A DNA stretch of 9,206 nucleotides from a virus (Duplodnaviria; Heunggongvirae; Uroviricota; Caudoviricetes), in IMG/VR virus record IMGVR_UViG_2534681940_000023, positions 1-9,206 of that record, one strand, 5' to 3'. Under the pieces are notes generated by a model that saw only the letters and a list, made by a program, of their open reading frames with translations, ran no database searches and was not told the origin of the DNA. The position numbers and the translations under genes are program-made. This document shows, in pieces, positions 6,361-9,206 of this stretch; position 1 is the stretch's first letter; every line of letters begins with the position of its first letter.

Positions 6361-6987
6361 ATGGAAACGGTTGGTCAGCGTATAAAAGCTCTGAGAAGAG
6401 TTACCAGAACGTCCCAGAAAGAATTGGGTAAATTTTGTGGAGTAAGTGACGTTGCTGTGGGGTACTGGGAGAAAGACATCAATGTCCCTGGTGGGGAAGC
6501 ACTTTCAAAATTAGCGAAGTTCTTCAATACGTCAATAGATTACATTCTTTATGGTGCGGAGTTTGAAGGCAAACTCGTCACAAACATGCGCAGAGTTCCT
6601 GTAATCTCGTGGGTTCAGGCTGGGCAGTTTACTGAGTGCAGGACAGCAGAAGTGTTTAGTGAAGTAGACAAGTGGGTAGATACATCATTAAAGATTGGTG
6701 ATAACTCATTTGCATTGGAGGTTAAAGGCGACTCCATGACTAACCCTAACGGCCTCCCAACAATACCAGAAGGCGCAACAGTGATTGTAGATCCTGATGC
6801 AGAACCCCGGCATGGAAAAATAGTCATCGCTAGACTTGATGGAACAAACGAAGCCACAGTAAAAAAATTAGTTATCGATGGCCCTCAAAAGTTTTTAGTG
6901 CCATTAAATCCCCGGTACCCCAACATTCCGATCAATGGTAATTGCCTCATCATTGGTGTAGTCAAAGGAGTTCAATACGAACTCTAG
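6361..6987 (+). CDS. cI: CI-like prophage repressor (XRE helix-turn-helix plus S24 LexA-type peptidase, autocleavable)
   Basis: N-terminal helix-turn-helix 'QRIKALRRVTRTSQKELGKFCGVSDVAVGYWEKD'. Ala-Gly cleavage site 'VQAGQF'. Catalytic Ser in 'GDSMTNPNG' and Lys in 'TVKKLV'. Confidence 0.85.
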   Translation: METVGQRIKALRRVTRTSQKELGKFCGVSDVAVGYWEKDINVPGGEALSKLAKFFNTSIDYILYGAEFEGKLVTNMRRVPVISWVQAGQFTECRTAEVFSEVDKWVDTSLKIGDNSFALEVKGDSMTNPNGLPTIPEGATVIVDPDAEPRHGKIVIARLDGTNEATVKKLVIDGPQKFLVPLNPRYPNIPINGNCLIIGVVKGVQYEL

Positions 6988-7005
6988 CCCCCCTTTTCTC
7001 TAACC

Positions 7006-7042
7006 AAAACACCGAACTAAGAAAAGTTTGGTGTTTTCTCTT
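7006..7042 (+). terminator. Intrinsic terminator after the cI-like gene
   Basis: AAAACACCGAAC / GTTTGGTGTTTT forms a 12-bp stem (one G-U pair) with an 8-nt loop, running into TTTTCTCTT. Confidence 0.6.
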
Positions 7043-7075
7043 GCCATCAAAACTAAGTTAAGTTAGATTTTATAT
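7041..7075 (+). promoter_or_regulatory. pL-like promoter with OL-like operator
   Basis: TTGCCA (7041-7046) -17 nt- TAGATT (7064-7069). The overlapping ACTAAGTTAAGTTAGAT (7052-7068) matches the 6278-6294 site at 15 of 17 positions, with its -10-overlapping end at the equivalent place. Confidence 0.5.
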
Positions 7076-7158
7076 CAAAGATAACGAACAGGCAGGACGC
7101 CCACGAAGTAGCCGACGGTGGCGTATGAATGACCGGATGATTCGCGCATGGCAGGAGA

Positions 7159-7533
7159 GTGAATATGGATGGCAGTATCGACAACCAACGAGATGCCTGG
7201 CTTGTGGTGATTGAAGCAGCAAAAACTGCATTAAGCCAAGTTGAAAGCAGTAACTACAGAACAGTTAAACAAATGGCTTTGGGCTCTATTATCTATGCCT
7301 TTGAAAGGCTGGACTTTGATTTTGAAGCAACGAGTATTCTGTCAGAACAACATGAAAAAATGAATAGAGAAGACGCCGCAGCCTATATCGGCGTAGAAGC
7401 GCAAACCTTAGCTAATTGGGCTAGCACAGGAAAAGTTCGAATACCTTTTTTAAAAATCGGTAGAAAGGTTATTTACCTAAAAAGTGATCTTGATGCCTAT
7501 CTTGCCTCATCGAAGGCAAATACCACCAAGTAG
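7159..7533 (+). CDS. Hypothetical protein with a C-terminal excisionase/AlpA-type helix-turn-helix (first gene after pL, N/rexAB position)
   Basis: RBS AGGAGAG. The C-terminus 'AAAYIGVEAQTLANWASTGKVRIPFLKIGRKVIYLKSDLDAYL' is an HTH_17/excisionase-like fold. There is no arginine-rich N-like motif. Confidence 0.6.
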   Translation: MNMDGSIDNQRDAWLVVIEAAKTALSQVESSNYRTVKQMALGSIIYAFERLDFDFEATSILSEQHEKMNREDAAAYIGVEAQTLANWASTGKVRIPFLKIGRKVIYLKSDLDAYLASSKANTTK

Positions 7534-7753
7534 CTCACGTACCTACCACCTCGCCTGATGTGGCTAAAAGCAGGCACATAACAGCTAAGTATTTTCAACC
7601 AGAGAGAATCCTTAGCGTTGTGGTGAATGCGGCTCAGCGCACGCGGGTTAAGGTTGAGACTGACAGTCGACCTTCTGTGGATACCCACCCGCCTGGTGTG
7701 CAACCTTCGCCAGGCACCGGGAGGCACCCGGCACCACAACAGCCACTGCTTTG

Positions 7754-7800
7754 GCGGTACCAGTTTGTACACTTGCTTCCGGCTGGTACCGCTCTTTTTA
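7754..7800 (+). terminator. Intrinsic terminator-like hairpin inside the GC-rich non-coding stretch
   Basis: Perfect 10-bp stem GCGGTACCAG / CTGGTACCGC (7754-7763 and 7783-7792) with a 19-nt loop, followed by TCTTTTTAC. Confidence 0.5.
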
Positions 7801-7888
7801 CAAAACAGAGAAGAGCATCACCGGACGACGGGCTCATAACCCAATCCACCCGGGCGGCTGCCACCGCAGGTGCTCTTCTCTGTTTTGT
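7800..7888. repeat. Perfect 18-bp inverted repeat (ACAAAACAGAGAAGAGCA / TGCTCTTCTCTGTTTTGT) around a 53-nt GC-rich spacer
   Basis: Arms at 7800-7817 and 7871-7888. It can extend by several further pairs with mismatches, and it lies immediately after the terminator U-tract. Confidence 0.6.
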
Positions 7889-7936
7889 GGAGAAACCAAC
7901 CGACCTTGCAGGGTCGATATGATGAGGAGCAGCAAA

Positions 7937-8299
7937 ATGGCTAGCGAACGCAGTACTGATGTGCAGGCATTTATCGGGGAGCTGGACGGCGGCGTATTTG
8001 AAACCAAAATCGGCGCTGTTCTCAGTGAAGTCGCTTCAGGTGTGATGAACACGAAAACCAAAGGGAAGGTCTCGCTCAACCTGGAAATCGAACCGTTTGA
8101 TGAGAACCGTGTGAAAATAAAACACAAACTCTCATATGTTCGTCCGACTAACCGCGGGAAAATTTCCGAAGAAGACACCACCGAAACGCCGATGTATGTC
8201 AATCGCGGTGGTCGCCTGACTATTCTGCAGGAAGACCAGGGACAATTACTGACTCTTGCCGGTGAACCTGACGGAAAACTCCGCGCAGCAGGTCATTAA
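7937..8299 (+). CDS. YfdP-like hypothetical phage protein (120 aa)
   Basis: GAGGAG lies 8 nt before ATG 7937; in-frame ATGs at 7919 and 7922 are alternatives. It precedes the yfdQ-like gene, as in CPS-53. The longer track ORF (7751..8299) runs through the non-coding structured region and is not credible. Confidence 0.55.
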   Translation: MASERSTDVQAFIGELDGGVFETKIGAVLSEVASGVMNTKTKGKVSLNLEIEPFDENRVKIKHKLSYVRPTNRGKISEEDTTETPMYVNRGGRLTILQEDQGQLLTLAGEPDGKLRAAGH

Positions 8300-8364
8300 T
8301 ATCGTTCTTAATTAACTGATTATTTATCTCATCACTGAATATCCTTATATAGTGAGGACTTATT

Positions 8365-9189
8365 ATGTCTCAGAACTTAGACGCAACCGCAATTAATCAA
8401 ATCCATGCCCTTATTTCTGCTCAGGGTGTTAATGAAATTATTAGTAAGATTGGTGCCGATGCTGTGGCATTGCCTGAGAATTTCCGCATTCATGATCTGG
8501 AAAAATTTAATTTAAATCGCTTCCGTTTCCGTGGTGCGCTTTCCACTGCCAGCATCGATGACTTTACCCGTTATTCTAAAGATCTTGCAGATGAAGGCAC
8601 CCGCTGCTTTATCGATGCCGATAATATGCGTGCCGTCAGTGTGCTTAACCTGGGTACTATTGATGAACCAGGTCACGCAGATAACACCGCCACTCTCAAA
8701 CTGAAAAAGACAGCACCGTTCTCTGCTCTGTTGTCTGTTAATGGCGAGCGTAACTCCCAAAAGTCACTGGCAGAATGGATTGAAGACTGGGCCGACTACC
8801 TTGTGGGCTTTGATGCTAATGGTGACGCCATTCAGGCAACCAAAGCGGCTGCGGCGATCCGTAAAATCACAATTGAAGCGAACCAGACCGCTGATTTTGA
8901 AGACAATGACTTCAGCGGCAAACGCTCCCTGATGGAGTCTGTCGAAGCGAAGACCAAAGACATTATGCCAGTGGCATTTGAATTTAAATGCGTTCCGTTT
9001 GAAGGCCTGAAAGAACGTCCGTTTAAATTACGCCTCAGCATTATCACTGGCGATCGTCCTGTACTGGTTCTGCGCATTATTCAGCTGGAAGCGGTGCAGG
9101 AAGAAATGGCTAACGAATTTCGTGATCTGCTTGTTGAGAAATTTAAAGACAGCAAAGTAGAAACCTTTATTGGTACTTTCACCGCCTGA
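8365..9189 (+). CDS. yfdQ: YfdQ-family protein (DUF2303)
   Basis: 274 aa, the same length and character as E. coli CPS-53 YfdQ. RBS TGAGGA. Confidence 0.8.
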
Positions 9190-9206
9190 TTTCATTACTG
9201 CAAATG

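Follow-up and report, generated by a model that had tools for sequence, protein, structure and literature searches.

A swappable cassette at the head of the predicted early-left transcript of a lambdoid prophage encodes a two-domain protein with a satellite-type DNA-binding domain

Introduction

In Gram-negative phage-inducible chromosomal islands (PICIs), a gene of the AlpA family at the int-proximal position encodes a positive autoregulator, which is switched on by a helper phage and is required for excision and transfer of the island; the studies describing this circuit (PMC6092414, PMC11773190, 10.1101/2022.09.08.507074) did not identify the inducing phage factor, and one of them reports that the inducer was under study (PMC6092414). 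AlpA/Xis-like proteins of different mobile elements are also known to cross-talk: some of them inhibit and others promote the excision of helper phage Kapi1 (PMC11773190). Here we describe the open reading frame (ORF) at positions 7165–7533 of a 9,206-nucleotide (nt) stretch of viral DNA (IMG/VR record IMGVR_UViG_2534681940_000023, positions 1 to 9,206; the whole stretch is called the window below). Its 122-amino-acid (aa) product has a small MerR-like winged-helix domain in common with the satellite regulators PICI AlpA, P4 Vis and CP4-57 AlpA. It differs from them in that it and its relatives match the Pfam family HTH_17 rather than PF05930, in that it carries an extra N-terminal domain of 65 aa, and in that its gene lies in a lambdoid early-left (pL) operon, far from any integrase gene. 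The position typical of AlpA and Vis, just after int, where the operon that leads to the primase gene begins, is held by relatives of its DNA-binding domain and not by the ORF itself.

Other described systems resemble the ORF in fold or in map position. RdfS of ICEMlSym has the same fold and is the best structural neighbor found with Foldseek (template modeling score 0.74 on the target, 64 columns, 26% identity). Unlike the excisionases of the HTH_17/TIGR01764 type (RdfS, Pukovnik Xis gp37 and Tn916 Xis), a type for which a weak profile match was also seen, the ORF protein has two domains, scores below the cut-off, is not encoded next to int, and belongs to a phage that has another excisionase. 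BldC and the MerR N-terminal family share the DNA-binding fold (root mean square deviation 1.7–1.9 Å over 51–53 residues), but the sequence match is not significant (NF033787, 13.2 bits versus a cut-off of 77) and the organisms and genetic context are unrelated. With respect to map position, the ORF corresponds to lambda N and HK022 Nun, as the first pL cistron upstream of terminators, whereas its product has a winged helix-turn-helix (HTH) fold and lacks an arginine-rich motif, a boxA-like element is absent, and relatives with the same terminators dispense with the ORF. Like rexAB and sieB, it occupies a variable slot beside the repressor gene, among unrelated accessory genes; unlike them, it is located after pL, appears to be neither cotranscribed with cI nor expressed from a lysogenic promoter of its own, and encodes no membrane domain.

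Results

The ORF is a gene and the predicted first cistron after pL

The window represents the immunity and early region of a lambdoid prophage, and its segment 6900–8000 is 99.5% identical to Escherichia virus mEp460_4F5 (features are collected in Table 1). The plus strand has an open frame that begins with a GTG codon at 7159 and ends with a TAG stop codon at 7531–7533. A preliminary description of this DNA had placed the start at the GTG codon, yielding a protein of 124 aa; the spacing of the AGGAG motif favors ATG 7165, which is almost certainly the true start, and therefore a 122-aa protein with a predicted mass of 13.6 kDa. The mEp460_4F5 record and the genes called in a large protein collection also have this length, and the same or nearly the same proteins have been called on hundreds of contigs. 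Full-length relatives in Citrobacter (87–89% identity), as well as the more distant P0053 and a protein of an Ewingella prophage (52–56% identity), keep the frame and occupy the same slot. Over the whole ORF, 16 codons of the Citrobacter copy differ synonymously and 14 non-synonymously from those of the window, there are no indels, and a GGAG motif precedes the copy at the same spacing. Judged from these comparisons, the ORF is a real gene and not a chance reading frame.

The RefSeq gene model, made by the Prokaryotic Genome Annotation Pipeline (PGAP), retains only the C-terminal 57 aa from Met66, as a 174-nt coding sequence in three genomes. If this model were right, a small HTH protein similar in size to the stand-alone relatives described below would be the only product, and the upstream 65 codons would form an untranslated leader. 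We find this barely credible, because no ribosome-binding site precedes Met66, whereas a strong one serves ATG 7165, because the 65 codons are open in every copy, and because the changes in this part of the Citrobacter gene (14 codons differ, 7 by synonymous and 7 by non-synonymous changes) show a third-position bias and include no indels. Moreover, the same 65 codons are 56% identical in P0053 and the Ewingella protein, neither of which has Met at position 66. With these codons and the ribosome-binding site intact, the 57-aa model is, by the pattern of its sequence, a systematic truncation in RefSeq.

Between cI and the ORF lies a hairpin with a T-rich tail, and the SfV record labels the counterpart of this site a putative rho-independent terminator. 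This hairpin is probably the cI/pRM terminator, which would insulate the ORF from lysogenic transcription. A promoter scan detected a pL-like sigma-70 promoter downstream of it and no other promoter-like site upstream of the ORF. From the pL-like promoter, transcription would begin near 7076. The pL-like promoter is overlapped by an operator copy (7042–7072) that is 81% identical to positions 6265–6295 in the pR/pRM region, and the region of this copy forms an inverted-repeat pair with the ACTAAG..CTTAGT operator at 6318–6339. Because the hairpin, the promoter and the operator copy precede it, the ORF is predicted to be the first gene of the repressor-controlled pL transcript. The preliminary description had likewise made it the first gene downstream of pL, but had assigned it to the rexAB/sieB position as well; the latter assignment failed, since the ORF lies after pL, in the N position, and not between cI and pL. 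By virtue of its location downstream of pL, the ORF should be repressed in the lysogen, unlike rexAB and sieB, and a lysogen-expressed exclusion gene of that kind is thus unlikely.

An orphan N-terminal domain is joined to a winged helix of the HTH_17 family

The excisionase/AlpA-type HTH domain proposed for this protein in the preliminary description was borne out, as residues 71–117 match HTH_17 (PF12728) with a score of 37.1 bits (cut-off 27; E 3.8e-9), and as an AlphaFold2 model (mean predicted local distance difference test (pLDDT) score 72.7) contains the MerR/excisionase-like fold, an HTH followed by a beta wing. In this model, the winged helix spans residues 65–120 at a pLDDT of approximately 77–90 and consists of strand 65–67, helices 68–75 and 79–88, strands 95–98 and 101–105, and helix 106–120. 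The second helix of the HTH, residues 79–88 (AQTLANWAST), is presumed to be the recognition helix; in an alignment of relatives T81, A83 and W85 are invariant, and L82, N84, A86 and G89 are at least 90% conserved. The best solved neighbors found with Foldseek were the RdfS excisionase, RacA, BldC, DNA-binding domains of terminase small subunits, Pukovnik Xis and Tn916 Xis. All alignments, both to the PDB and to the viral structure library BFVD, which gave the same picture, were confined to the winged helix. Sequence searches of the PDB with the single sequence or a profile returned no significant match, the best profile hit being a "phage protein" at E 0.0097. Neither Pfam nor the AlphaFold2 model revealed a membrane or effector domain, and Phage_AlpA (PF05930) was not matched at E values up to 0.1. 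As had been stated beforehand, the protein lacks an arginine-rich motif, as no stretch of 15 residues contains more than 2 Arg.

The N-terminal extension had been described as novel and approximately 75 aa long; it is indeed an orphan, although its length is closer to 65 aa. A HMMER scan of 1.84 billion representative proteins recovered only its own family, with members in Escherichia, Citrobacter and Ewingella, in addition to two false hits, one a tandem-repeat assembly artefact and the other a leucine-rich-repeat false positive. Likewise, tblastn did not detect it in the satellite loci that we retrieved. Both of its predicted helices are kept in P0053 (52% identity), while the linker that joins it to the winged helix, where the pLDDT drops below 50 at residues 54–61, is not. 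On the strength of the modeled helical hairpin, we presume that this orphan domain drives oligomerization.

The ORF and its ribosome-binding site form a cassette in a variable slot

Similarity to the phages Kati, SfV and PhiR49_1 ends at 7143–7144 and restarts at 7544–7546, such that the variable segment consists of exactly the ribosome-binding site and the ORF. On its left side is the conserved pL leader, which is found in phages and prophages that differ in immunity and in cassette; on its right side, a block containing a structured RNA and terminators is 93–95% identical in SfV, PhiR49_1 and Kati, all of which lack the ORF. The slot is filled by a 98-aa plus-strand ORF in SfV, by a 242-aa minus-strand gene without a credible plus-strand gene in PhiR49_1, by a 122-aa minus-strand gene in mEp460, by two small genes in Kati, and by a diverged form of the ORF in the Ewingella prophage. 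Thus, the earlier view of this site as a hotspot of variability was well founded, different genes being carried there by SfV, PhiR49_1, mEp460, Kati, Citrobacter and Ewingella elements.

The cassette is rare: with an identity of at least 99%, it occurs in 8 of the 5,426 complete E. coli genomes searched, and it is present in one of 50,697 phage records searched by tblastn, that of mEp460_4F5. It is paired in E. coli with either of two repressor types, a 208-aa cI or a ymfK-type protein, and is followed either by yfdP/yfdQ or by rdgC; in Citrobacter, it occurs with a 228-aa repressor and a reverse-strand gene for a 293-aa protein with a BRCT domain. These alignments indicate that the ORF and its ribosome-binding site are a self-contained, swappable cassette in a hotspot between a conserved leader and a conserved RNA/terminator block.

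Additional observations were made around this slot. A 17-nt direct repeat brackets the ORF (7101–7117, CCACGAAGTAGCCGACG; 7523–7539, CCACCAAGTAGCTCACG; 82% identical), and its Citrobacter counterpart is less similar; it may have arisen by chance or may be left over from the recombination event by which the cassette was inserted. The Citrobacter BRCT-domain gene (3921–4802, minus strand, in loci L017–L020) lies between the repressor gene and pL, and its product weakly matches the PADLOC candidate defense family PDC-S48 (E 1.6e-6). In the Ewingella locus (L028), positions 5360–5728 on the plus strand encode a 122-aa protein that is hydrophobic at both ends and has a zinc-ribbon motif in the middle; this gene follows the repressor gene and precedes the putative pL, which is the classical rexAB/sieB position.

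The RNA on the right side of the slot resembles STnc100 (Rfam RF02076; Table 1), for which a 2026 preprint reports a relation to the prophage small RNA (sRNA) PasD (10.64898/2026.05.13.724894). The predicted fold of 7534–7900 has a z score of -6.8, and STnc100-like matches are also found in Kati, PhiR49_1 and SfV. To judge from its place and fold, this RNA could be an sRNA derived from a 3′ untranslated region of the pL transcript, part of an antitermination device of this phage group, or both. A fold of the leader (7074–7164) was no better than that of shuffled sequence (z +0.6), which speaks against a put-like RNA there. The ORF at 7560–7922, which overlies the structured RNA and was considered as a hidden N-like protein, was rejected, since PhiR49_1 and SfV do not keep its frame and PGAP annotates it as a pseudogene with a frameshift.

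The closest relatives of the DNA-binding domain reside in satellite-like islands

Outside of the two-domain family, the closest relatives of the C-terminal domain are stand-alone proteins of 65–73 aa with 55–74% identity over the domain. They are found in Klebsiella, Pantoea, Xenorhabdus, Yersinia, Serratia, Salmonella, Citrobacter and E. coli, and comprised at least 554 clusters in a profile search. We inspected 15 loci, representing four protein clusters and one annotated E. coli island. The gene order was the same in all 15: int (450–480 aa), an ORF of approximately 200 aa, the HTH_17 gene, small ORFs, and a gene for a D5-type primase or an AAA_25 protein. The islands often carry a capsid gene or a fusion of prohead protease and capsid, and some encode a separate Phage_AlpA (PF05930) protein beside the HTH_17 protein. 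By gene content they are satellite-like elements of the PICI, capsid-forming PICI or P4-like kind. An E. coli example of the class is found in strain E2855, at approximately 3.942–3.952 Mb of NZ_AP018796.1. Among 5,426 E. coli genomes, 84 contain such an island, while the tblastn search of 50,697 phage records found no relative of the domain except that in mEp460_4F5. None of the 8 ORF-carrying genomes is among the 60 island carriers listed of these 84; as approximately 0.1 overlaps would be expected by chance, this result is uninformative in either direction.

Just upstream of the stand-alone HTH_17 gene, islands contain a CATAGCGCGTTATGA-like motif that is directly repeated two or three times with a spacing of 21 or 40 bp (L006, 5877–5943; L002, 5859–5911; L032 and L033, approximately 4880–4960), the Pantoea islands having three copies at the 21-bp spacing. 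These repeats are probably binding sites of the regulator or arm sites of the integrase. When we searched the window, a 17-kb early region and the whole of mEp460_4F5 for the satellite repeat (CATAGCGCGTTATG and looser forms), only unclustered hits at chance level were found. The lack of a repeat cluster of the satellite type in the phage is consistent with a target outside the phage, though it is no proof of one.

A different combination involving this domain was seen in P0018 (L021, 6001–6483; L022, 2348–2830), a protein of 160 aa in which the same domain (74% identity) follows an unrelated N terminus of 100 aa. It is encoded in the early-left operon of a Rac-like prophage, together with YdaS/YdaT, a RecE-like exonuclease, Exc and Int. 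Because of P0018, the domain appears to have been joined to different N termini at least twice in lambdoid prophages.

Other features of the window

Elsewhere in the window, the reverse strand contains two RNAs above the Rfam threshold, C4 antisense RNA (80 bits) and isrK (54 bits), at 4401–4488 and 4513–4589 on the minus strand. They fall inside a mechanically called 553-aa ORF (3783–5444, minus strand), in the C-terminal part of which Ash and Rha antirepressor domains are found, and a 130-aa ORF of the ProQ/FinO family lies just upstream in another frame (4639–5031, minus strand). The 3783–5444 block looks like an immunity module of the P1 c4/ant or isrK-anrP type with an RNA-chaperone-like protein of its own.

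Table 1. Coordinates of the cassette, its gene and the surrounding features, in the window unless another source is named
Feature	Positions	Strand	Remarks
CII-like gene	5441–6139	-	
P22_Cro-type gene	6063–6263	-	
S24/HTH_3 repressor gene (cI)	6361–6987	+	directly before the ORF
Hairpin after cI with T-rich tail	7006–7037	+	inverted repeat, 13-nt arms, 92% complementary
pL-like sigma-70 promoter	7041–7069	+	TTGCCA-17-TAGATT; promoter scan
Conserved pL leader (5′ end of the transcript), bordering the slot on the left	7083–7144	+	82–91% identity in SfV, PhiR49_1, Kati and Citrobacter prophages differing in immunity/cassette
Exchangeable cassette, ribosome-binding site and ORF only	7145–7545	+	
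Shine-Dalgarno motif AGGAG	7153–7157	+	read from the sequence; 7 nt before ATG 7165, 1 nt before GTG 7159
Coding sequence, 122 aa, stop included	7165–7533	+	
N-terminal domain, aa 1–65	7165–7359	+	acidic, isoelectric point 4.5; predicted helices 4–27 and 32–48, then low-confidence linker
C-terminal winged HTH, aa 66–122, HTH_17	7360–7530	+	basic, isoelectric point 9.7
STnc100/PasD-like structured RNA, outside the gene	7599–7801	+	Rfam RF02076, 36.3 bits, below gathering threshold of 47; E 4e-5
Intrinsic terminator ending the RNA	7754–7800	+	stem 7754–7792 plus T tract
Second long hairpin	7800–7888	+	
yfdP-like gene	start 7919 or 7937, end 8299	+	
DUF2303 yfdQ-like gene	8365–9189	+	
PGAP short coding sequence	4214–4387 of L014, L015, L016		NZ_AP018802.1, NZ_CP028755.1, NZ_CP027550.1

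Discussion

The explanation that we favor, at a confidence just short of even, is that the ORF encodes an accessory, horizontally exchangeable DNA-binding protein of early lytic growth, which acts in trans and possibly on satellites. The gene would be silent in the lysogen, because cI should occupy the pL operator and a terminator follows cI, and its product would be made immediately upon induction or infection. The N-terminal helical hairpin may oligomerize the protein and thereby place two or more winged helices on repeated sites. Small domains of this fold bind direct repeats cooperatively in the case of BldC. The target would most likely be reached in trans, because the cassette moves without a cis site of its own between phages that differ in immunity and in downstream genes. 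In view of the ancestry of the domain, the likeliest targets would be the arrays of repeats that precede the HTH_17 genes of satellites and that the related satellite proteins presumably recognize. The protein might then interfere with the induction or excision of a resident satellite or, less likely, trigger it; the sequence cannot decide between blocking and triggering.

Several points weigh against this proposal. No binding site for the ORF protein was found, binding of the HTH_17 proteins to the repeats that precede the satellite genes is a presumption, and the similarity in the presumed recognition helix is no proof of a common specificity. The stand-alone relatives match HTH_17 and not Phage_AlpA, and their role as regulators is itself presumed. 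Repression in the lysogen and the start of transcription are predictions from sequence patterns. The N-terminal domain is modeled with moderate confidence only (pLDDT approximately 70, predicted template modeling score 0.48), and its capacity to oligomerize is an interpretation of that model. The zero overlap between the ORF carriers and the 60 listed island carriers does not bear on the question. A more specific version, which we regard as doubtful, would make the ORF protein a phage-encoded mimic of the int-proximal master regulator of satellites, which blocks or induces PICI-like or capsid-forming islands. With a satellite-type DNA-binding domain and a private oligomerization domain, and being made in the first minutes of lytic growth, such a mimic could occupy the autoregulatory or att-proximal repeats of a satellite and so block island induction or excision; alternatively, it could be a helper-specific inducer.

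The fold and the nearest solved relatives, which are recombination directionality factors (RdfS, Pukovnik Xis and Tn916 Xis), together with matches to phrog_66 ("excisionase and transcriptional regulator") among the PHROG families and to TIGR01764 ("excise"), as well as the adjacency of the stand-alone relatives to integrase genes, are the kind of evidence expected of an excisionase or an auxiliary directionality factor for the phage's own integrase. We nevertheless consider this role improbable. The TIGR01764 score (22.1 bits) is below the curated NCBIfam cut-off of 28.8, the cassette is missing from close relatives with the same backbone, and P0018 coexists with a separate Exc-Int pair. Furthermore, the ORF lies at the promoter-proximal end of the pL operon: in the 99.5%-identical mEp460_4F5, where it occupies 8266–8634, int (15900–16997) is approximately 6.7 kb further down the operon, and a dedicated excisionase of 93 aa, of the PrtN/PyocinActivator Pfam family (phrog_1300, E 1e-39), is encoded near it at 14329–14610. 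The ORF protein, on these grounds, is not the excisionase of the phage, and the result that would have contradicted the preliminary description, clear homology of the protein to a known excisionase together with an integrase gene adjacent to the ORF, was not obtained. An AlpA-named HTH protein is an antiterminator in Pseudomonas, and the ORF sits in the N position upstream of tandem terminator-like hairpins, in a region where neither an N-like protein nor a boxA is evident (no plus-strand boxA-like element was found with up to 3 mismatches, boxB hairpins not having been searched systematically). It might therefore be imagined as a DNA-loaded processive antiterminator, comparable to P. aeruginosa AlpA or lambda Q, which replaces N for the hairpins at 7754–7888. 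This is very improbable, because related phages fill the slot with unrelated genes, some of them on the other strand: SfV, PhiR49_1 and Kati share both the leader and the RNA/terminator block in the absence of the ORF, and in PhiR49_1 and mEp460 the slot holds only reverse-strand genes, so that read-through there must be independent of the ORF protein. Conversely, neither the STnc100-like RNA nor the first terminator is present in the Citrobacter prophages, which do have the ORF, and Pfam gives no Phage_AlpA match. By this comparison the ORF protein is not the N-type antiterminator of the phage, and the control of the downstream RNA or terminator that had been suggested for it beforehand is unlikely for the same reasons. 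Hence, while the preliminary description of the gene was essentially correct, its interpretation was supported only in part. Since the SfV/mEp460/yfdPQ-type group does not depend on a slot-encoded protein at its conserved terminators, attention moves to the conserved leader and to the RNA of the STnc100/PasD kind.

A general regulator that acts early on phage or host transcription and has no link to satellites, for example one that tunes host genes during lytic growth, would agree with the predicted sequence-specific DNA-binding fold and early expression, and the finding that neither the window nor mEp460_4F5 contains a repeat cluster of the satellite type leaves room for a host target. We nonetheless think it rather unlikely, as a regulator of phage genes should travel with its target, yet the cassette assorts independently of the immunity and downstream modules, and as the closest relatives of the domain are confined to satellite-like islands and absent from the 50,696 other phage records. 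HK022 Nun is a precedent for an exclusion factor encoded in the N position. A factor for superinfection exclusion or phage defense, which would bind the DNA of other incoming phages and silence it, would also suit a hotspot with diverse genes, including those for the Ewingella membrane zinc-ribbon protein and the Citrobacter BRCT protein with its weak PDC-S48 match, and the MADS defense HTH protein MAD1 gave weak matches. The probability of this role seems to us slightly lower again. Located after a repressed pL and the cI terminator, the ORF should not be expressed in the lysogen, where exclusion matters; the MAD1 match, the only one obtained from defense-system libraries, reached 24.8 bits against an equivalog cut-off of 80 (21.3 bits with PADLOC), and no MADS partner genes are nearby, the neighbors being cI, yfdP and yfdQ; and the protein has no membrane or effector domain. 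The same libraries left most of the other genes in the slot unassigned. Our preference thus stays with an accessory early protein that acts in trans, possibly on satellites.

The fold and the family of the DNA-binding domain (HTH_17, excisionase/MerR-like) were known already. What is modestly new is the architecture, in which an orphan N-terminal domain is combined with a satellite-type DNA-binding domain, the placement of the cassette inside the pL transcript, and the near-absence of the domain clade from sequenced phages. For annotation, the slot should be regarded as a place within the pL transcript where cassettes are exchanged, and at which RefSeq truncates the ORF to 57 aa. A phage protein that carries the presumed recognition helix of a satellite regulator is a testable candidate for cross-talk between phages and satellites. 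If the link to satellites is true, the pL hotspot of lambdoid phages would hold an anti-satellite or satellite-sensing determinant in the form of a swappable cassette.

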